Source: Isurus oxyrinchus (Eukaryota). From it: a stretch of 64,000 nucleotides of DNA. The notes under the pieces are model-generated. The model was not told where the DNA came from. It ran no database searches and saw only the letters and a program-made list of their open reading frames with translations. The DNA is taken from contig JANJGN010000021.1 of assembly GCA_026770705.1 (NCBI GenBank), positions 99,200,001-99,264,000 on the forward strand. The letters are read 5' to 3'. A program made the translations under genes and the position numbers. Each line of letters begins with the position of its first letter. Positions within the stretch are counted from its first letter, which is position 1. Shown here one piece after another: positions 2,300 to 20,846 of this stretch.

Positions 2300-4314
2300 T
2301 GGGACAGGATCCATCCCGGGACAGTGACGGTGGGACCAGACTCACCCCGGGACAGTGACGGTGGGACCGGACTCACCCCGGGATGGTGACGGTGGGACGG
2401 GACTCACCCCGGGATGGTGACGGTGGGACAGGACTCACCCCGGGACGGTGACGGTGAGACAGGACTCACCCCGGGATGGTGACGGTGGGACAGGACTCAC
2501 CCCGGGACGGTGACGGTGAGACAGGACTCACCCCGGGACGGTGATGGTGGAACAGGACTCACCCCGGATCGATGGGATGGGACTCACCCCGGGACAGTGA
2601 CGGTGGGATGGGACTCACCCCGGGATGGTGACGGTGGGACAGGACTCACCCCGGGACGGTGACGGTGGGACTGGACTCACCCTGGGACGGTGACGGTGGG
2701 ACGGGACTCACCCTGGAACGATAGGACAGGACTCAACCCGGGACAGTGACGGTGGGACGGGACTCACCCCGGAACGATGGGACAGGACTCAACCCGGGAC
2801 AGTGACGGTGGGATGGGACTCACCCCGGGGCAGTGACAGTGGGACTGGACTCACCCCAGGACAGTGACAGTGGGACTGGACTCACCCTGTGACAGTGACG
2901 GTGGGACGGGACTCACCCCGGGACGTTGACGGTGGGACGGGACTCACCCCAGGACAGTGACGGTGGAACAGGACTCATCCCGGGACAGTGACGGTGGGAC
3001 GGGACTCACCCTGTGACGGTGACGGTGGGACAGGACTCACCCCGGGACGGTGATGGTGGGACGGGACCCACCCTGGGACAGTGACGGTGGGACGGGACTC
3101 ACCCTGTGACGGTGACGGTGGGACAGGACTCACCCCGGGACGGTGACGGTGGGACAGGACTCACCCCGGGACGGTGATGGTGGGACGGGACTCACCCCAG
3201 GACAGTGACGGTGGAACAGGACTCATCCCGGGACAGTGACGGTGGGACGGGACTCACCCTGTGACGGTGACGGTGGGACAGGACTCACCCCGGGACGGTG
3301 ATGGTGGGACGGGACCCACCCTGGGACAGTGACGGTGGGACGGGACTCACCCTGTGACGGTGACGGTGGGACAGGACTCACCCCGGGACGGTGACGGTGG
3401 GACAGGACTCACCCCGGGACGGTGATGGTGGGACGGGACTCACCCCAGGACAGTGACGGTGGAACAGGACTCATCCCGGGACAGTGACGGTGGGACGGGA
3501 CTCACCCTGTGACGGTGACGGTGGGACAGGACTCACCCCGGGACGGTGATGGTGGGACGGGACCCACCCTGGGACAGTGACGGTGGGACGGGACTCACCC
3601 TGTGACGATGACGGTGGGACAGGACTCACCCCGGGACGGTGACGGTGGGACAGGACTCACCCCGGGACGGTGATGGTGGGACGGGACCCACCCCGGGACA
3701 GTGACGGCGGGACAGGATTCACCCAGGACGGTGACGGTGGGACAGGATTCACCCCGGGATGGTGACGGTGGGACAGGATTCACCTGGGACGGTGACGGTG
3801 GGACAGGATTCACCCCGGGACGGTGACGGTGGGTCGGGACCCACCCCGGAACGATGGGACAGGACTCACCCCGGGACAGTGACGGTGGGAAGGGACTCAC
3901 CCCGGGACGGTGACGGTGGGACGGGACTCACCCCGGGACGATGACGGTGGAACAGGACTCACCCCGGGACAGTGACAGTGGGACTGGACTCACCCCGGGA
4001 CAGTGACGGTGGGACGGGACCCACCCTGGAACGATGGGACAGGACTCACCCCGGGACAGTGACGGTGGGACGGGACTCACCCCGGGACGGTGACGGTGGG
4101 ACTGGACTCACCCCGGGACGGTGACGGTGGGACTGGACTCACCCCGGGACGGTGACAGTGGGACGGGGCTCACCTAGGGACGGTGACGGTGGAATGGGAC
4201 TCACCCAGGGACGGTGACGATGGGATGGGACTCACCCCGGGACGGTGACGGTGGGACGGGACTCACCCCGGGACGGTGACGGTGGGAAGGGACTCACCCC
4301 GGGACGGTGACGGT
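2300..4314. repeat. 31-bp GC-rich minisatellite (~65 units; consensus GACTCACCCCGGGACRGTGACGGTGGGACRG, with 25-bp variants)
   Basis: Direct periodicity visible in the sequence; the array is embedded in the LINE endonuclease coding region. Confidence 0.97.
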
Positions 4315-8478: not shown

Positions 8479-8693
8479 TTTGGAAAAGTAAGGTACGCTT
8501 TCGGAGTGGTAAGGTACCCCTTTGCATATGATTCCAAGGCACCTTTTGGAAAGGTCAGGTGTCCTCTTGGAAAGGCCAGGTGTCCTTTGGGTGAGGTCAG
8601 GTGTCCTTTTGGAGAGGTCAGGTGTCCTTTTGGAAAGGTCAGGTGCCCTTTTGGAAAGGTCAGGTGTCCTTTGGGAGAGGTCAGGTGCCCTTT
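8479..8693. repeat. 21-bp minisatellite (~10 units, TTTGGAAAGGTCAGGTGTCCT)
   Basis: Direct periodicity; it generates the heptad ORFs PFGKVRC and KGHLTFP. Confidence 0.93.
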
Positions 8694-9293: not shown

Positions 9294-9672
9294 AGGGGCC
9301 AAAGGGGTGAGTGAATGGCATTATTTGGTACAGAGGGTATGAGGGGCCATGTTGGGGTGAGTATATGGCATTAGTTAGTATAGAGGGTATGAGGGGCCAT
9401 GGTGGGGTGAGTGAATGGCATTAGTTAGTACAAAGGCAATGAGGGGCCATGGTGGGGTGAGTAAATGGCATTAGTTGGTACTGAGAATATGAGAGGCCAT
9501 GGTGGGGTGAGTAAATGACATTAGTTGGTACAGAAGGTATGAGGGTCCATGGTGGGATAAGTGATTGGCATTAGTTAGTACAGAGGGTATGAGGGTCCAT
9601 GATGGGGTGAGTGAATGGCATTGGTTGGTACAGAGAGTATGAGGAGCCATAGTGGGGGAGTGAATGGCATTA
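9294..9672. repeat. 50-bp minisatellite (~7.5 units, GGGGTGAGTGAATGGCATTAGTTGGTACAGAGGGTATGAGGGGCCATGGT)
   Basis: Units start at 9304, 9354, 9404 and so on; the array is cut off by the LTR at 9673. Confidence 0.93.
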
Positions 9673-10450
9673 TGTTGCCCAGGGGCTGCAACTGAACTGC
9701 TGACACAGGCAAAAGCAACTTTTGACCTGAAGCAACCAGAGTCCAGTCACTGGCCTGAGCTGGCTGGAACCGGTTTGAAGTAGCTGAGTTTCTTGAAAAA
9801 CAAAGGGAATGAGATAAGACACAAGTCCTTATTTAGGAAAGGAGTAATGAGGTAATGCTACCTAAGTCCTTGGGATAGAGCCAATGAGAAGATGCCACAG
9901 ACTAGGCAAGCAATGGGAGAGAGACAGCACCAGTTCTGTCGAAGGGTCATGAGAACTTGAAACATCAACTCTTTTCTTCTGCGCCGATGCTGCCAGACCT
10001 GCTGAGTTTTTCCAGGTAATTCTGTTTTTGTTTTGAAGAGATAAGATTCAGTATAAGAGTGGAGAATTTTGGGTGTGGACCCAGCGAGAACTCCTGAGTC
10101 CAACCATCGCAGAAGCAGAAGAATCTACATCAGCAACGTAGAGACGATGTCGCAAGAGAGAGAGAACGGAACGCCTGGCCAGCGTCAGCTCTCCTTTTCC
10201 GGTATTAGCTTTTATATTCTGTGACCACTCAGGGAGTTCAGAGAAAACTAGTGGGTGTGCGTTTTGATCCTAGTTTTGGGTATAAAACTGTATAACCTGC
10301 TGTAAACTGCATGTTTATATTTAACCAGACATATAAGCTACATGTAGATGATCTAACAAGGTGAATAAAGCAAATTTAGAGCTCAGAGAGAATTGACTCT
10401 TCTCCTCTTTGTACTAAGCCAATAACCGTTACTGGTGACCTCCAGCAACA
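9673..10450 (+). repeat. 5' LTR of the retrovirus-like element
   Basis: Termini TGTTGC...GCAACA (6-bp inverted repeat), AATAAA at 10364-10369, and PBS after a 4-nt spacer. Confidence 0.8.
9931..10036 (+). mobile_element. Solo PLE 3'-tail fragment inserted in the LTR (hammerhead-like 9932-9970)
   Basis: Reverse-complement match to 4700-4800. Confidence 0.8.
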
Positions 10451-10454
10451 TATC

Positions 10455-10476
10455 TGGCGTCCCTGGGTGGGCTCGA
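10455..10476 (+). promoter_or_regulatory. Primer-binding site complementary to tRNA-Asn(GTT) 3' end
   Basis: TGGCGTCCCTGGGTGGGCTCGA is the reverse complement of the vertebrate tRNA-Asn 3' end (...TCGAGCCCACCCAGGGACGCCA). Confidence 0.9.
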
Positions 10477-10563
10477 GGATAAATCTCTCCATTGAGTCAG
10501 TGGGAGACTCGCACCAAACCGAGTTGGCAAAGTAAACAGAGAACAGCAGTCTGGGTTAATTCA

Positions 10564-13500
10564 TAGCTATTAACATAAGATGACAAATCAAAAGGAATCC
10601 CCAAGCCCTGGATACTTGGTTTGTTTTGACTGGAAGGGACTCCTCAAAAATACTTAATAGGGAAGTGGCCGCAATACGGGGAGTATGCGGGTCACATTGG
10701 CGACAAGGGAAAACCCGCTGGGGAAGCCCTTTGGAGAATTGCACAAACAAAGATGTCAGATAAGAAATTTAAAAAGGTACAGAAGTCCGTAGCAATCGGA
10801 TGTTTATTTGAGGAATGGATAGAATGCCAACAGCAGGCTAGGAGAGAATGAGACAGACTAGAGGAAGAGAATAAAAAAGTCTGTGAGGAGATAGCCCACC
10901 TTAGTGAGAAGGTGACTTCTAAAGGGACAGAGAAGTGAAGATTAGATGCACATGAACCAATATCAGTTACAGTGCGAAAAATTGGTTAATGACAAGAGTA
11001 AGAGAGAGGGAGAAGCCCAGGCAGCTAGAGCTGAGGTGGAGGGATGGAAACAACAATGTAGTGATTTAGAAACTACATGAATGTGATTCACAGAGCAGCT
11101 CAGGAAAAGAGGAGTAGTACCGGTGATCAGACAAAGTGTCAGAAACTGATAGTGAGGCTGCAAGATCAGCTAGCCGCACAGAGGGGCATACTGTGTGCTT
11201 TCGCACCCGGAAGAGGTGAGGAAAGTGGTCAAGGGGATATAGATTGGGATGATTTAGCAGACGGGGCAGATAGATACAGCAGCGGTAACGGGGAACCTCC
11301 ACCAGATGATCCACCGGCGGCATATATTCCAGAGCCGGAAAAACCGTCTGCCCCAATGGCCCCCCCTTGTAACCACTAGAGCACAAGCAGGGACAGATGG
11401 CCAGGGGCAAGTCAGCCCGAATATGACATATTCCACCCCACTTGGGGAAAAGAATTGAGGGACATTGCGAAAGATATTGGGATGTTTATGCCTGGGGATA
11501 ATCCTAGGGAAAATAAAAATACCTGGAAGAACTCAGCAGGTCTGGCAGCATCTGCGGAGAGGAACACAGTTAATGCTTCAAGTCCGTATGACTCTTCAAC
11601 AGAACTAAGGAAAAATAGAATAGAGGTGAAATATAAGCTGGTTTAAGGGGGAGTGGGTGGGGTGGGACAGGTGGAGTGGATAGAGGGCCAGTGATAGGTG
11701 GAGATAACCAAAAGATGTCACAGACAAAAGGACAAAGAGGTGTTGAAGGTGGTGCTATTATCTAAGGAATGTGATAATTAAGAGTAGAAAGCAGGACGAG
11801 CAAGGTATAGATAGCCCTAGTGGGGGTGGGGTGACGTGAAGGGATCGAAATAGGCTAAAAGGTAGAGATCAAACAATGGATGGAAATACATTTAAAAATA
11901 ATGGAAATAGGTGGGAAAAGAAAAATCTTTATAAATTATTGGAAAAAAGGGGGATCGGAAAGGGGTGGGGATGGAGGAGAGAGTTCATGATCTAAAATTG
12001 TTCAACTCAATATTCAGTCAGGAAGGCTGTAAAGTGCCTATTTGGAAGATGAGGTGTTGTTCCTCCAGTTTGCATTGAGCTTCACTGGAACAATGCAGCA
12101 AGCCAAGGATGGACATGTGGACAAGAGAGCAGGGTGGAGTGTTGACATAGCAAGTGACAGGGAGGTCTGGGTCATGCTTGAGGACATACTGAAGGTTTTC
12201 CACAAAGCGGTCACCCAGTCTGTGTTTGGTCTCTCCAATGTAGAGGAGACTGCATTGGGAGCAGCGAATACAGTAGACTAAATTGAGGGAAGTGCAAGTG
12301 AAATGCTGCTTCACTTGAAAGGAGTGTTTAGGCCCTTGGACGGTGAGGAGAGGGGAAGTAAAGGGGCAGGTGTTGCACCTTCTGTGGTTACATGGGAAGG
12401 TGCCTTGGGAGGGTGTTGAGGTGTAGGGGGTGATGGAGGATTCGATCAGGGTGTCCCAGAGGGAACGATCCCTGCAGAATGCCACGGTGGGGGGAGGGGT
12501 TGGGGGGGCGGGGTTGTGGGGGGTGGTGAAGGGAAGATTTGTTTGGTGGTGGCATCATGCTGGAGTTGGCGGAAATGGTGGAGGATGATCCTTTGAATGC
12601 AGAGGCTGGTGGCGTGATAAGTGAGGACATGGAGGACCCTATCATGGTTCTGGGAGGGAAAGGAAGGTGTGAGGGCGGATGCGCGGGAGATGGGCCGGAC
12701 ACGGTTGAGGCCCTGTCAACCACTGTGTGTGGAAAACGTTGGTTAAGGAAGAAGGAAGACATGTCAGAGGAACTGTTTTAGAAAGTGGCATCATCAGAAC
12801 AAAAGATCCTCGGGAGTTGTTCCTAGCGGTCAGGGAACAGGGAGGGGTACACGACTTAGACGATGCTGAGGAAAGAAAAGTAATTCTAATGTGCCTACAC
12901 CCACATATACACTCCACCCTACTGGAGGAACAAACACTTGGTAGAAGCACTAATGAGACCTTAAAGAACCAGGTATTATCTGTCATTGGCGATAATAGAG
13001 GGGACCCAGCGGAGGCGCTGATGAAATGCTATCAAAGAAAAGGTGAACACCCCACCGCATTTTCGGCTCACATTTGGACAGTGTTTCAAGGGGTCTATGG
13101 CACAGGCCTATTTAGGGATAACTTACAGCCGGAGATTAGGAACCGATGGCTGAGAACGCTAGTGTCGCATGGCACTGAAGAGTTGAGGAAAGCACTAGAT
13201 CAGTTTGATCCCACTGATGACACACATACAAAGCCTTGGATAATTAGGAAGATGGTTAGAGTATGGGAAAAGGAAACACCAAAACTACCCAAGACATCCG
13301 GGGACAGAGCAATGCCTGTTAAGAATCAGGTGACAACCTGGAGAAATGAAGGGAGGGGACCTACTCAGAGGGAACCCTCTCCAGTTTATCAAACATTAGG
13401 AAGAGGTAGAGGCAGAGGAAAAGGAAACTTCTCGGGAACAGGGAGAACTCAGGGCGAGGTGCCCAGATGCTATAACTGTGGTCAAGAGGGACACTTTGCA

Positions 13501-13635
13501 AGGGACTGCCTGAACTCGAGACGAGAGAATGCAGGTCGAGGAGGTAACCAGAGCCTACCTGTGGAAGGACCGAGTCCTCAGTATGATATGATAGAAATAT
13601 CACCGAGTTCCGGGTTGTACCCCGAACTGCAATGA
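10564..13635 (+). pseudogene. gag: Coiled-coil + Gag polyprotein, disrupted by stops/frameshifts and a PLE insertion
   Basis: E/K/Q/R-rich helical segment at ~10820-11200, then a Pro-rich linker. Removing 11511-12805 and one TSD copy rejoins ...MPGDNPRE|LFLAVREQGG... in frame. Contains the zinc knuckle CYNCGQEGHFARDC; stop at 13633-13635. The start coordinate is approximate. Confidence 0.8.
11511..12805 (-). mobile_element. 5'-truncated Penelope-like element (GIY-YIG endonuclease plus 3' tail) inserted in gag
   Basis: ORF 12018-12485 has NLVYCIRCSQCSLLYIGETK (GIY-YIG) with Cys/His motifs. Flanked by ATCCTAGGGA (11501-11510) and ATCCTCGGGA (12806-12815), a 10-bp TSD with one mismatch. Confidence 0.92.
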
Positions 13636-16453
13636 CGGTCTCAGACTTCTCCGTTATGGGTGTGTGATATGCAGTGGGATGACATGGGGAGATTCCTAGT
13701 GAATGATGGGGTTGGAGGCCACCCTATTACATTCCTTTGGGACACAGGGGGGTCCCGCACCACCGTTAACGCCACTCAGATCAACGACATACATGGGAAA
13801 ATTCAAAACAAAATTATTCTAAGCGGATTCACAGGGCGTTCACAAGTAGGATATGTGAGTGTACCGTTGAAAGTCGGTGTGGGAGACATAGTGATAGAGC
13901 ATTCAGTATCAAATTACCCAGAGAACAAGAACATATATTAGGGAGTGACGATATGGCCAAAGCGGGACTCTGCTTTGACCCTGTTAATTGTATGATTTGG
14001 CAAATGCCTTTGGGCATAGGCAGTATAAATCACACACTTGTCCCAGTGGGGGAAAATCAGGATAGGATATGCACGATTGGGGAAAAGTGGATGGAACCAG
14101 GAGAAATGAGTGACGATCCTGAAGTACAACAAATTATCGCACAAAACTCAATAGTATTTGCCCGACATAAACATGATTGTGGGAAATGATCGAGAGTGTG
14201 TGTATACAAGGTCCAGACCCCAAACCACAAAAGCAGTACGGTTTCCCAAAACAAGCAGAAGAAGAGATAGGGAAGGTGATATAGAGTCTGCTGCAGCAAG
14301 GGATATTAAGACCAATAGCTTCTACTGACAACGCACCTATTTGGCCGGTGAGGAAACCTGATGGTGGCTGGCGACTAACGATAGACTACAGAGAATTAAA
14401 TAAAGTCATCCAGTTAACAGCCCCTACTGTAGCAACTAGCCCAGAGACAGTAGTTCAACAAAATGAGGATGTGCAGTGGTTTACGGTTTTGGACATAAGT
14501 AACGGTTTTTGGCCTATCCCACTGGAGAAAGAATGTCAATATAAATTTGCGTTTACTTTCCAAAGAAAACAATATACATGGACCGCCCTGCCGCAGGGAT
14601 TTCACAATTCCCCGTCCATATTTCACCAACGACTGAGGGAAGGGTTAAAAGGATTCTCGAGGCCCGAATGTCTAGTGCAGTATGTAGACAACTTACTCCT
14701 ACAAACTAAAACCAAAAAGGAACATTATCAACTGCGAAGTGAATTACTGCAGTTGTTACATGATTTGGTATTAAAGATTAACCCTAAAAAAGCACAGATC
14801 ATGAAACAAAAAGTTACTTACTTGGGAATAATTCTGACACCGGGGAAGAGGGACATTGACAAGCGAAGGATAGAGACGGTTGGCAGGCTCCCTGTTCTGT
14901 GTGGTGTAAAAGGGTTAAGGTCCTTCTTAGGCTTGGTGGGATATTGCAGGGACCACATTGAAGGATTCACCACAAAAGCGGCCCTGCTGATGGAGATATT
15001 AAAAAAGAGTGTGGCCAGGGAGTGGAAAACAGAACACACTCAGGCCATGCCCGCTCTAAAGCAAGCACTAGCTGCTGCGCCTGCTCTGAAAACCCCAAAT
15101 CCAACTGAGCCATTTTCTTTGGAGGTGGCTACCACAGACACCACCCTTTCGGCCGTTCTGTTACAGGAGACACATGGGAAATTACAACCAGTAGCGTACG
15201 CCTCACACATGCTCTCACCAGTAGAGCAGGGGTTTACGATACGTGAAAAACATTTGCTAGCTGTCTTTTGGGCATTGCAGCATTTTACCTATATAGTGGG
15301 ACTAAAACCACTTACAATATTAACAGAACACACCCCCGTACAGCTACTGTTAGACGGAAGGATTAAGGATGGTGCAGTTAGCCAAAATAGAATCGCTAGA
15401 TGGACATTGTTGCTGAAAGGGAGAAATATAACCGTAAAGGGGGTAAAAACCACCACCATGTTAGCAGACAACTTAGTTTATCAGGGAGACAAACATGAAT
15501 GTCAATTGATGATAGCAAATGACCCCAAGGGCCCATTTGTATCAAATAAAAAGGGAGGGAGTAAGACGGGGCCTGAAAGCAAAAAAACAAAGGAAACAGG
15601 AAAGGAAGAACCCTAGTTTAAAATGTTTGTGGATGGCTCTTCATCAGTACAGGATGGGGAAAGGCGAACTGGCTGTGGGATATACATGGAGGATGAACAT
15701 GGACAGGAAAGATATAGTGCGGCTTTGAAATTACCTAAAACCATGAGTGCGCAGGCAGCAGAACTAGCAGCCAACACATATGTGGTTGGCCACCCAGAAT
15801 ATTTTCCGCCTAGATTAGTCATATATTCTGATAGCATGTATGTTTGTAATAGCCTCACAGAACATTTGCCCCTATGAGAAGTGAGAAGATTTGTCTCAGC
15901 GGATGGAAGGCCCCTTCCTTCGGACCCGCTATTACGGTACATCTTTGAAGAAGCACAGGGGAAAGGATTTGGGGTCACAAAAGTGAAAGCTCATTCAAAA
16001 CTATCTCCCGAAGGCAACAGGAAAGCTGATGAACTCGCCAATCGAGGTGCTGTAAGTGGTCAGGAATGGCAGCCACTGATTGGGGAAATCGGGGGCCAGA
16101 AGGAGAAGCAGGTCAAAGTAATGAATTTAACGGAGGAGCAAAAGAAAGTTGGAGAATTGAAAAAACTAATAGATGGAGCAGAGTCAGACACATACAAAAG
16201 GCACGATGGGGTCTATATTCAAGATGGAGTGGTTTTATGTGAAGGAAAATTTGTGGTGCCAGAGGGAGGACGAAACCAAATTATCCACTGGTACCATGAC
16301 TTATGGGGACATAAAGGGATGAAGAGCACCCTGGATCAGATAAAGGAGGTGTGCTGGTGGCCCAGAATGAAAGGTGACGTGGAACACTACGTCAAGAATT
16401 GTTTGATCTGTGCACAACGCAACCTCAATAGACACAGTAAAAGAAGCAAATTA
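13636..16453 (+). pseudogene. pol: pro-pol: protease, RT, tether, RNase H, integrase N-terminus
   Basis: FLWDTGGS (PR); WRLTIDYRELNK, LDISNGFW, LPQGFHNSP, QYVDNLLL (RT, YxDD decayed to YVDN); FSLEVATTDTTLSAVLLQ...PVAYAS (tether); FVDGSS...SAQAAEL...IYSDS...KVKAH...GNRKADELA (RNase H); HDLWGH...CLIC (IN). Carries frameshifts and in-frame stops (15614-15616, 15875-15877). Confidence 0.92.
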
Positions 16454-17030
16454 TGTAGCTGCTCACCGACAGGGAAAGAAGAAACAGCAAAGCAAGGTTT
16501 ATTTCGATGCAAAAGCCAGCCCGATATAATTGAGACCCACACCCGGCACCTTGCGAACTCTTTCTAGGGTCACCCACCATGATACCCATTTTCACCCTCC
16601 CGCCAACATCTCCTCCCCTCTACTCCCTGGAACCAAAACCTTAGCTCCCAGGGCACTTTTCTCCAGATAGGATTTGTGGAGCAGGAAATTGTCCTGAGCC
16701 TGTGGTCATGTCACAGGACTGAAAATTCAAGCCATGGTCTTCAGTGCATTTTGGGCCACATGGAAACTCAAGTTTGACTCCTGAGTCCGTGAGGAATAGT
16801 GTTTGGGTACTTTCCCTGTCCTTGTTTAGATCATTAACACCGTTCCTGCCAACCAGACCTCTGGTACATTCCCTTTGACCTCTGCTGCTGTTACCTCAGC
16901 TCCTTTACATTCCTCTGCCTTGGCCTCCTTAAATCCTACTGGCTTTCCTTTAGCCTCTTTCACCTTTACTGGCCCTATCGTCCCCTGTCATATTTTTGGG
17001 ATCTCCTCAGCCCGAGTGGACTACTCCTGC

Positions 17031-17723
17031 CCTAAATTCATATGTTCATATGTAGAATGTAGCACAGCTCTGATGCCTTCAAGCTTTCTATCCATGTCTA
17101 TCTGCTCTCATGTGCCTAGTCTTAAGAAATACATCCACAACCTGTTTACCCAATCCCTTATCAGTGATTGCTGCCTTTATATCATTATCAAAACATGATA
17201 GTCATCACCATAAAATTAGTGGTGTGAGTGAATTTCGGATTGAAATGAAGAGAAACAAGAATATTTGGAAGGATGAAGTGTGATACCATAGAGGGGGGGG
17301 GAAACAGTCACTGTATGAACAGTCTGACTGTCAAACAGGGTGATGGACAATCCACAGCAGGATCTCCACTGTCCCTCACAGAGCTTTATAATCACCCCTT
17401 TATATAGGGTCAGGAGGATGTTGGTGGTCTGAGATAACCTGGTCTATTCAACCGTGAGGGCATCACAGCTGATCCTGGGGTGGGTTGAACATGGATTATC
17501 CTTCTCCTCTCCGTAGTGTTTTGAAGACTTTAGCCCAGGAGTGATGAAACTGTTTTGCTTCTCCCAATCGATGTGAAAATTAAAAGTGTCCATTTGAACC
17601 ATTTTCCATTTGCTCCAAGCTTCTCTGCTCTCGGTGTTTCTACATCCTGCTGTCAGGAGAGCTACACACAAATCCCATCAGAGTCTTACAGACGGTGCTG
17701 ACTTCAATGGTGTAAAATATCAG
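17031..17723 (-). repeat. Inverted paralogous copy of the 5' part of MHC intron 1 (matches ~21591-22264), including the Gypsy LTR end and CR1 tail
   Basis: Spurious ORFs 17444-17671(-) and 21649-21876(+) are nearly identical. Homology resumes for a few bases at 20847-20865 beyond the PLE insertion. Confidence 0.93.
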
Positions 17724-19272
17724 AACAAAACCAAAAATACCTGGAAAAACTCAGCAGGTCTGACAGCATCTGCGGAGAGGAGCACAGTTAACGTTTCGAG
17801 TCCGTATGACTCTTCAACAGAACTAAGGAAAAATAGAAAAGAGGTGAAATATAAGCTGGTTTAAGTTGGGGGGGGGGGGGGGGGGGTGTGGTGGGACAAG
17901 TAGAGCTGCATAGAGGGCCGGGGGGGGTGGGACAGGTAGAGCTAGATAGAGGGCCAGTGATAGGTGGAGATAACCAAAAGATGTCATAGACAAAAGGACA
18001 AAGAGGTGTTGAACGTGGTGATATTATCTAAGAAATGTGATAATAAAGGTACAGATAGCCCTAGTGGGGGTGAGGTGGGGGGCAGGGATCGAAATAGGCT
18101 AAAAGGCAAAGATAAAACAATGGATGGAAATACATTTAAAAATAATGGAAATAGATGGGAAAAGAAAAATCTATATAAATGATTGGAAAAAAGGGGGATC
18201 AGAAAGGGGGTGGGGATGGAGGAGAGAGTTCATGATCTAAAATTATTGAACTCAATATTCAGTCCGGAAGGCTGTAAAGTGCCTAGTCTGAAGATGAGGT
18301 GCTGTTCCTCCAGTTTGCGTTGAGCTTCACTGGAACAATGCAGCAGGCCAAGGACAGACATGTGGGCATGAGAGCAGGGTGGAGTGTTGAAATGGCAAGC
18401 GACAGGGAGGTTTGGGTAATGCTTGTGGACAGACCGAAGGTGTTCCGGAAAGCAGTCACCCAGTCTGCATTTGGTCTCTCCAATGTAGAAGAAACGGCAT
18501 TGGGAGCAACGAATGCAGTAGATTAAATTGAGGGAAGTTCAAGTGAAATGTTGCTTCACTTGAAAGGAATGTTTAGGCCTTGGACAGTGAGGAGAGGGGA
18601 AGTAAAGAGACAGGTGTTACACCTTCTGTGATTGAATGGGAAGGTGCCGTGGGAGTGTGCTGAAGTGTAGGGGGTGATGGAGGAGTGGACCAGGGTGTCC
18701 CGGAGGGAACGATCCCTGCGGAATGCCGCCACCGGGGGTGAAGGGAAGATGTGTTTGGTGGTGGCATCATGCTGGAGTTGGTGGAAATGGCGGAGGATGA
18801 TCCTTTGAATGCGGAGGCTTGTGGGGTGATAAGTGAGGGCAAGGGGGACCCTATCATGTTTCTGGGAGGGAGGAGAAGGCGTGAGGGCGGATGCGCAGGA
18901 TATGGGCTGGACACGGTTGTGGGCCCTGTCAACCACCGTGGGTGGAAAACCTCGGTTCAGGAAGAAGGAAGACATGTTATAGGAACAGTTTTTGAAGGTA
19001 GCATCATCAGAACAGTTGCGACGGAGGCGAAGGGACTGAGAGAATGGGATGGACTCCTTACAGGGAACGAGGTGTGAGGAGCTGTAATCGAGGTAGCTGT
19101 GGGAGTCGGTAGGCTTTTAATGAATATTGGTGGACAGTCAATCACCAGAAATTGAGACAGAGAGGTCAAGGGAGTGAAGAGAAGTGTCAGAGATGGACCA
19201 TGTGAAAGGGGAGTGGGTCGGAGTAGGACTGGAACAAGGAATGTTCCATATACCCCATAAAGAGACAGGCAT
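17724..19272 (-). mobile_element. Penelope-like element, left (minus) arm of palindromic insertion
   Basis: Reverse complement of most of the right arm; contains RT C-terminal and GIY-YIG segments with an internal deletion near 19208. 3' tail at 17724, hammerhead-like motif at 17786-17824. Confidence 0.92.
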
Positions 19273-20846
19273 GGCCCCCTCCTACAACTCTTTCTCCGGT
19301 ACATCGATGATTGCTTCGGTGCTGCTTCATGCTTCTTGTCTGGACCTGGAAAAATTTATTAATTTTGCTTCCGACTTCCACCCCTCCATCATTTTCACAT
19401 GGTTCATCTCTGACACTTCCTTTCCCTTCCTTGACCTCTCTGTCTCAATTTCTGGTGATAGACTGTCCATAAATATCCATTACAAGCCTACCATCTCCCA
19501 CAGCTACCTTGACTACAGCTGCTCACACCCCGCTTCCTGTAAGGACTCCATCCCATTCTCTCAGTTCCTTCGCCTCCGTCGCATCTGTTCTGATGATGCC
19601 ACTTTCAAAAACAGTTCCTCTGACATGTCCTCCTTCTTCCTGAACCGAGGTTTTCCAGCCACGGTCGTTGACAGGGCCCTCAACCATGTCCAGCCCTTCT
19701 CCTGCGCATCCGCCCTCACGCCTTCTCCTCCTTCCCAGAAACATGATAGGGTCCCCCTTGTTCTCACTTATCACCCCACCAGCCTCCGCATTCAAAGGAT
19801 CATCCTCCGCCATTTCCGCCAACTCCAGCATGATGCCACCACCAAACACATCTTCCCTTCACCCCCGGTGGCAGCATTCCGCAGGGATCGTTCCCTCTGG
19901 GACACCCTGGTCCATTCCTCCACCACCCCCTACACCACAGCCCCCTCCCACGGCACCTTCCCATGCAACCGCAGAAGTTGCAACACATGCCCCTTTACTT
20001 CCCCTCTCCTCACCGTCCAAGGGCCTAAACACTCCTTTCAAGTGAAGCAGCATTTCACTTGTACTTCCCCCAATTTAGTCTACTGTATTCGTTGCTCCCA
20101 ATGCAGTCTCCTCTACATTGGAGAGACCAAACGCAGACCGGGTGACTGCTTTGCAGAACACCTTCGGTCTGTCCGCAAGCATTACCCAGACCTCCCTGTC
20201 GCTTGCCATTTCAACACTCCACCCTGCTCTCATGCCCACATGTCTGTCCTTGGCCTGCTGCATTGTTCCAGTGAAGCTCAACGCAAACTGGAGGAACAAC
20301 ACCTCATCTTCCGACTAGGCACTTTACAGCCTTCCGACTGAATATTGAGTTCAATAATTTTAGATCATGAACTCTCTCCTCCATCCCCACCCCTTTCTGA
20401 TCCCCCTTTTTTCCAATCATTTATATAGATTTCTCTTTTCCCACCTATTTCCATTATTTTTAAGTGTATTTCCATCCATTGTTTTATCTTTGCCTTTTAG
20501 CCTATTTCGATCCCTTCCCCCACCCCACCCCCACTAGGGCTATCTGTACCTTTATTATCACATTCCTTAGATAATATCACCACCTTCAATACCTCTTTGT
20601 CCTTTTGTCAATGACATCTTTTGGTTATCTCCACCTATCACTGGCCCTCTATCCAGCTCTACCTGTCCCACCGCCTGTTAAACCAGCTTATATTTCAGCT
20701 CTTTTCTATTTTCCTTAGTTCTGTTGAAGAGTTATATGGACTCGAAGCGTTAACTGTGTTCCTCTCCGCAGATGCTGTCAGACCTGCTGAGTTTTTGCTT
20801 TTTGTTTCGGATTTCCAGCATCCGCAGTTTTTTGCTTTTATCTTGT
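19273..20846 (+). mobile_element. Penelope-like element, right (plus) arm: RT C-terminus, GIY-YIG endonuclease, 3' tail
   Basis: FLRYIDDCFG at ~19291-19320, frameshifted relative to ORF 19184-20341. That ORF has FPFLDLSV, YKPT..HSYLDY.CSHP..CKDSIPFSQFLRLRRICS and NLVYCIRC...YIGETKR. Hammerhead-like motif at 20717-20755. Confidence 0.95.

Follow-up and report, generated by a model that had tools for sequence, protein, structure and literature searches.

Retroviruses related to snakehead retrovirus (SnRV) were published from cartilaginous fish in 2015, when lineage I of the endogenous retroviruses (ERVs) of the elephant shark, CmiERV, was found to cluster with SnRV (Han 2015, PMC4422223). This lineage is, in a comparison made by reading and not in trees, the closest published relative of the element described here, a provirus that extends from 9673 to about 16540 in a stretch of 64,000 nucleotides of the genome of the shark Isurus oxyrinchus (GenBank assembly GCA_026770705.1, contig JANJGN010000021.1, positions 99,200,001 to 99,264,000, forward strand; hereafter the window). 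The provirus is interpreted, with a probability of about 0.88, as a dead, 3'-truncated copy of a multi-copy shark ERV family. The reverse transcriptase (RT) of this family is canonical and goes with elements of frogs and the coelacanth, probably within the SnRV-related assemblage ('Huo' or class III), and the envelope protein (Env) of sister copies is predicted to have the fold of paramyxovirus and pneumovirus fusion (F) proteins.

CmiERV lineage I shares the cartilaginous-fish host with the window family, and the CmiERV provirus of scaffold 2 resembles it by eye in RT motifs, coiled-coil Gag and the TGA-C junction of gag and pro. Lineage I differs by its primer binding site (PBS) and, by eye, by a gamma-type Env with an immunosuppressive domain and a CX6CC motif but no F-type core. 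SnRV (clade Huo; Xu et al. 2018, PMC6001957) has in common with the family an in-frame gag stop, a Gag coiled coil, one zinc knuckle and an Env that can be aligned by profile, whereas its gag stop is TAG, its Env has 1134 codons and its integrase is placed with those of foamy viruses. Lokiretroviruses (Wang and Han 2021, PMC7947760), some of which carry an smc-like coiled-coil gene, share the dual RNase H, an F-like Env with an RXKR site, the N-terminal coiled coil and a similar integrase and tether; they are set apart by the placement of RT (approximately unbiased (AU) test, p=0.0001).

Further described groups were compared by their characters. The Odin retrotransposon (PMC9040795) has no env, unlike the sister copies of the family, and its RT is the sister of the lokiretroviral one, whereas the window RT lies inside the canonical clade in a tree built without an Odin sequence. 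The Env of foamy viruses has an F-type core (Fernandez et al. 2024, PMC11468914), as does the predicted Env of the family, which differs from foamy viruses by its separate RT (foamy group 100/100), its Gag zinc knuckle and a pol in frame with gag. ERV4 and ERV3 (Chong et al. 2014, PMC4299795) have target-site duplications (TSDs) of 5 bp and no Gag zinc finger, against 4 bp and a CCHC knuckle here. Ty3/Gypsy elements (Metaviridae) have a RT inside Gypsy and a single RNase H; the family has neither.

Placement of the reverse transcriptase

The best database matches were frog and coelacanth proteins, with 50–53% identity. A careful RT tree (LG+C20) was built with 48 of 87 rows after redundant and long-branch rows had been thinned, alongside a quick tree of all 87. 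Rows were taken to be foamy, lenti-, beta-, gamma- or epsilonretroviral on the basis of characteristic motifs and of genome sizes, and the outgroup consisted of unlabelled single-RNase-H proteins taken as Gypsy. Database proteins whose motifs agree with the Loki or SnRV rows of the alignment in the lokiretrovirus paper (Dataset S2) served as Loki and SnRV references, and the matching SnRV genome was fetched. Sequences of ERV-L, ERV4, OVEX1, Odin, CGIN1 and CmiERV were absent from the trees.

The Loki rows formed a single clade (100/99), and the canonical retroviruses together made up its sister group (100/99). The window RT was found inside the canonical clade of spuma- and orthoretroviruses (100/99), within a clade of 11 rows that includes frog and coelacanth elements (98/97), and the quick tree displayed the same split between Loki and canonical viruses. 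The RT of the window is 52–55% identical to the frog and coelacanth elements, 47% to SnRV, which is the nearest named virus by this measure, 36–38% to Loki and 28% to the Gypsy-type reference. It lacks motifs present in nearly all Loki rows of the published alignment and resembles the SnRV row.

The initial annotation, made by a model from the letters of the window, had proposed a lokiretrovirus- or Odin-related lineage, which would be the first in cartilaginous fish. Several characters are indeed as in Loki, namely the dual RNase H, the Gag coiled coil and the F-type Env with a RXKR site, the motifs of which resemble by eye those of the Loki-Xtr Env; the integrase is also compatible with Loki. 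However, the RT stands outside Loki (100/99) and lacks its motifs, and a single clade uniting the RT of the family with Loki is rejected (AU test, p=0.000114). Besides, none of the shared characters is specific to Loki. A tether followed by an RNase H, one of the two characters used for the proposal, is common to all retroviruses, the coiled coil occurs in SnRV Gag, the F-type fold is present in foamy Env, and the Env model matches that of a walleye epsilonretrovirus. A Loki or Odin affiliation is thus very improbable. The initial remark that cartilaginous fishes were not prominent among the originally reported hosts agrees with the published survey, in which 0 of 6 chondrichthyan genomes were positive (PMC7947760). 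A query with Loki pol found no match in viral contigs.

That the element is of the retrovirus type and not Gypsy, as also proposed, is upheld by the succession of RT, tether and second RNase H, and by the RT tree. An ordinary Ty3/Gypsy retrotransposon or errantivirus having gained an RNase H and an F-type env could be invoked, as F-type env genes occur in errantiviruses and some relatives are named 'Gypsy integrase-like' in databases. With two 100/99 branches between the window and the Gypsy-type outgroup, and 28% RT identity to the Gypsy-type reference, this explanation has next to no probability.

Predicted envelope of the sister copies

The sister copies are the 20 best pol matches fetched from the same genome. 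In these, env follows pol and spans about 2.3 kb, with a signal-like start, a furin site, a fusion-peptide-like stretch and a transmembrane helix. The F-core region of one copy, written as a single frame with X at four internal stops, was modelled with an alignment of 33 relatives (26 of 42 matches plus 7 genome loci), giving a mean predicted local distance difference test (pLDDT) score of 71. Among the matches listed by Foldseek against the PDB, all were paramyxovirus or pneumovirus F proteins (best E 7.7e-10, template modelling (TM) scores 0.25–0.38). With VIA-align, F proteins occupied ranks 1–9 (Z 8.9–10.5, 266–328 residues aligned, root-mean-square deviation (r.m.s.d.) 5–27), followed at rank 10 by foamy Env (Z 7.5, 261 residues aligned, r.m.s.d. 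4.7). The matches in BFVD comprised paramyxovirus F, lispivirus, baculovirus F, feline foamy Env and the Env of two walleye viruses, WEHV-1 and WDSV. The Mononegavirales-like fusion protein suspected initially in full-length relatives was thus encountered there, in the form of a predicted fold. At the sequence level, a collinear alignment of 278 columns links the Env profile to SnRV Env (E 1.1e-4).

Altogether, an Env of about 750 codons would combine a signal peptide and an extra N-terminal domain with a Pro/Thr linker, an F-type core that contains the furin site and the fusion peptide, and a transmembrane helix; the motifs observed, borne by the predicted fold, would make it a membrane fusion protein.

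The walleye epsilonretrovirus Env matched the F-type model with E-values of 1e-9 (WEHV-1) and 1e-7 (WDSV); epsilonretroviral Env has been called neither gamma- nor beta-type (10.1101/2021.11.23.469661). SnRV-related Pol accompanied by a gamma-type Env has been reported from anamniotes in the same source. Together with the gamma-type Env seen by eye in CmiERV lineage I, this implies that env has been exchanged within the SnRV-related assemblage.

The named relatives of the Env are from sharks and frogs (8 of 10 clusters looked up; 9 named in all). In the frog Mantella aurantiaca, a relative of 677 residues (P0208 cluster) has 16 records that are almost identical, which suggests a recently active family with this Env in that species. 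An atlas look-up of a shark homologue gave one chordate cluster at 0.82, taken as a lead only, and a word-based homologue search with an Env fragment retained 0 of 3816 candidates. Several other ERV families on other contigs of the same genome (L081–L093) encode a related Env with 25–45% identity, in some cases in long open frames that reach 727 codons. Where their RT could be scored, it was placed with proteins of Heterodontus and Mustelus and away from the window family.

When the 20 copies picked by pol were examined, env was full-length in 2, carried an internal deletion in 16 and was interrupted upstream of the region judged in 2. All 16 deletions take out the furin site. One breakpoint is shared by 6 loci, a second by 5 and a third by 2, and the other 3 breakpoints are each seen once. 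Splicing was rejected as the source of these deletions, as the junctions are short microhomologies and not GT-AG. The middle of env would thus have been lost by microhomology deletion in most surviving copies, and for this reason much of the spread of the family was likely intracellular or complemented in trans.

Organization of the provirus in the window

The following features were recognized in the window.

9673–10450, forward strand: 5' long terminal repeat (LTR; TGTTG...CAACA), 83–94% match to both LTRs of sister copies
9932–10035, reverse strand: short Penelope-type tail within the LTR, not in sister-copy LTRs, matching in inverted orientation the Penelope ends of the window
10455–10476, forward strand: primer binding site for tRNA-Asn(GTT), 4 nt past the LTR
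10580–11509, forward strand: 5' part of gag with helical N-terminal domain, long coiled coil and proline-rich linker, from translations and the sister-copy Gag model
11510–12801, reverse strand: Penelope-like retroelement fragment inside gag, with a short target duplication; gag resumes beyond it in sister copies
12802–13635, forward strand: 3' part of gag with capsid and one CCHC zinc knuckle (13468–13509; Pfam zf-CCHC, E 5e-8)
13636–14230, forward strand: aspartic protease (DTG motif near 13741; Pfam Asp_protease_2, E 5e-5) and linker
14231–15019, forward strand: reverse transcriptase (Pfam RVT_1, E 3e-33; trees)
15020–15490, forward strand: tether, a degenerate Gypsy-type RNase H (Pfam RT_RNaseH_2, E 1e-24)
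15617–16066, forward strand: second RNase H (Pfam RNase_H, E 4e-11 and 0.003 on two stop-split pieces)
16295–16432, forward strand: integrase HHCC zinc finger (Pfam Integrase_H2C2, E 2e-18), ending at a deletion
16433–16540, forward strand: integrase C-terminal remnant, 86–94% match to a part of sister copies that lies about 600 bp downstream

The PBS agrees at all 22 nucleotides with the 3' end, CCA included, of tRNA-Asn(GTT) as encoded in the same genome, as first noticed, and tRNA-Asn would prime reverse transcription. The 5' part of gag carries stops and frameshifts and is followed by the Penelope-type insertion of 1.3 kb. The gene ends at a TGA (13633–13635) in frame with the protease, which is frameshifted near 13940. 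The RT has a stop at 14282 and a catalytic motif damaged at 14681–14692. According to alignments, the tether lacks the catalytic Asp of Gypsy and the second RNase H retains all four acidic catalytic residues. In the integrase, junction mapping showed that about 600 bp including the catalytic core are missing at 16432/16433, with a short microhomology, so that of its domains only the zinc finger is left. The initial reading of a degenerate RNase H, a complete second one and an integrase holds for the order, the length and the residues; the second RNase H is nevertheless broken by stops at 15614 and 15875, and the integrase is reduced to its zinc finger.

The element reaches about 16540, beyond the end at 16453 first assigned to it, and is truncated there. 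As was already recognized, it is cut off before env: no env or 3' LTR exists in the first 26.5 kb of the window, and the remainder is a 39-bp satellite. A detached 3' LTR was sought beside the rest of the 50-bp array into which the provirus is inserted (see below); one exact pattern match was obtained on another contig, which equals the control count. With its stops, frameshifts, damaged RT motif, two Penelope insertions, integrase deletion and 3' truncation, the window copy is dead. The insertions, deletion and truncation would be later events. The copy clusters with two env-deleted copies and so may already have been without a complete env when it was truncated.

The insertion point of the provirus is the end of an array of 50-bp tandem units (9304–9677), and the window contains other arrays with units of 31 bp (2300–4314) and 21 bp (8542–8693). 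The truncation is adjoined on the reverse strand (16541–17040) by an unrelated sequence that reads like decayed gag of another retroelement. At 17720–20814, two Penelope-like fragments related to the insertion in gag lie head to head, forming long inverted repeats. A C-rich satellite of 39-bp units, about 76–85% identical to each other, fills 26041–64000, at least 38 kb.

Gag and host

The model of the N-terminal part of sister-copy Gag consists of a small helical bundle followed by one helix of 107 residues (61–167). The coiled coil that had been placed before capsid and nucleocapsid and called SMC-like is thus present as a long helix. As for the SMC (structural maintenance of chromosomes) likeness, the Pfam search with Gag returned generic sub-threshold coiled-coil matches only and no SMC family. 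Generic matches of this kind are also obtained with SnRV Gag, and the coiled coil is therefore not a Loki marker. A protein of Heterodontus francisci is 67–75% identical to the Gag of the family, in support of a shark as host; Env relatives in several sharks are likewise consistent with the guess of a shark genome.

The family in the genome

A pol search of the same genome yielded at least 80 candidates, 40 of which were scored (90–95% identity), and a LTR search yielded 427 candidate matches. Two LTRs about 8.4 kb apart were found within 10 kb in 14 of the 20 fetched copies. The intact genome, as seen in sister copies, is LTR-gag-pro-pol-env-LTR, of 8.4 kb. TSDs are of 4 bp, exact in 5 of 10 copies and with one mismatch in 3 more, and were left by integration.

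The divergence of LTR pairs (Kimura two-parameter distance) is 0.039–0.119 in 12 copies, one of which has a partly mislocated 5' LTR. This amounts to 9–27 million years at a mammalian rate. With the rate that PMC4422223 assumes for sharks, which is ten times lower, it amounts to 90–270 million years, so that the age of the family may lie anywhere in these ranges.

The TGA stop of gag was found in 21 of 22 alignable copies (26 examined), in the context TGA-CGG in 16. In alphaviruses and coltiviruses, UGACGG serves as the type II readthrough context, and fish and frog retroviruses have been described with readthrough sites at UGA (PMC13517186). Pol would thus be produced by readthrough of the conserved stop, to judge from this context.

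The 25 copies in the pol tree radiate like a star, as if the family had expanded in one burst, and the window copy is grouped with the two env-deleted copies (100/100). In each of the six most similar of 300 pol pairs, both members share a contig; 20 pairs in all are of this kind (0 of 100,000 permutations). Four of these six lie within 5 Mb, and identity drops with distance. The copies involved are L001, L002 and the window copy (C21), L005 and L015 (C6), L006 and L074 (C4), and L008 and L017 (C2). Because similarity is patchy in the close pairs, and three pairs carry differing env deletions, distance-dependent ectopic gene conversion between neighbouring proviruses is likely, duplication being possible for the closest pair.

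Points against the assignment and the origin of the integrase

Several results weigh against parts of the interpretation. SnRV is the sister of the window clade in the best RT tree with a weak support of 70/45; with this support and no ERV-L, ERV4, OVEX1 or Odin rows in the trees, the assignment to the SnRV assemblage is loose. Gag homology to SnRV is confined to the zinc knuckle. Regarding Env, the hhalign probability against SnRV Env is 56%, and pairwise BLAST between the two gave nothing significant. The TM-scores of the Env model are just 0.25–0.46 overall, the Env profile found nothing under E 0.16 among PDB sequences, and a Pfam search with 18 Env and Gag pieces plus SnRV Env detected no fusion-protein (PF00523) or SMC family. 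A stem-loop downstream of the gag stop of the window copy, which could assist readthrough, is no better than in shuffled sequences (z 0.32). Finally, the pol tree does not unite copies by env deletion class (9 changes), so that amplification of deleted lineages is argued from shared breakpoints only.

The integrase and the tether pull in the direction of Loki. The tether scores 101 bits to Loki versus 60 to SnRV, and integrase scores are also higher to Loki than to SnRV. In an unrooted integrase tree of 37 rows and 223 columns with one copy of the family, Loki joined frog and coelacanth members of the clade (91/93), and SnRV was placed with foamy viruses. By AU tests, integrase of the clade with SnRV is rejected (p=0.026) and the clade with Loki is not rejected (p=0.21), although the latter is not in the best tree. 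The Loki affinity initially advanced thus survives in the similarity of integrase and tether, and not in the RT.

This pattern would be expected of a recombinant combining a canonical SnRV-like RT with the integrase, and possibly the env, of a lokiretrovirus, and domain replacement is common in retroviruses. The same pattern would however arise if the clade had kept an ancestral integrase near the Gypsy/Loki root while that of SnRV diverged, and the integrase trees are short as well as unrooted. No Loki donor is needed for env, since the Env can be aligned with that of SnRV, and foamy and epsilon viruses have the fold too. Such a recombinant is considered unlikely.

It is somewhat easier to conceive, if still tentatively and at less than even odds, that the shark family represents an early-branching canonical line that kept an ancestral kit in common with Loki: F-type Env, little-eroded tether and Loki/Gypsy-like integrase.

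Significance

The window copy itself is merely a decayed fragment, and the surprise is limited by what was already known, SnRV-related ERVs in cartilaginous fish since 2015 and the F-type Env of foamy viruses since 2024. No report of an F-type Env in SnRV-related ERVs was found in the open-licence full-text literature. The origin of retroviral env has been left open in PMC7947760, with four scenarios listed and none chosen.

If the family did keep an ancestral kit, the common ancestor of Loki and canonical retroviruses would already have had an F-type Env, also retained by foamy viruses, SnRV and walleye epsilonretroviruses. The gamma-type Env would then be a later replacement, occurring even within this clade, as in CmiERV lineage I. 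The combination of a predicted F-type Env with a canonical RT in sharks and frogs, beside a published relative with a gamma-type Env, would remove this envelope as a Loki marker and speaks for those scenarios in which the F-type Env is ancestral. The predicted folds suggest that the F-type envelope is old and widespread among aquatic retroviruses.

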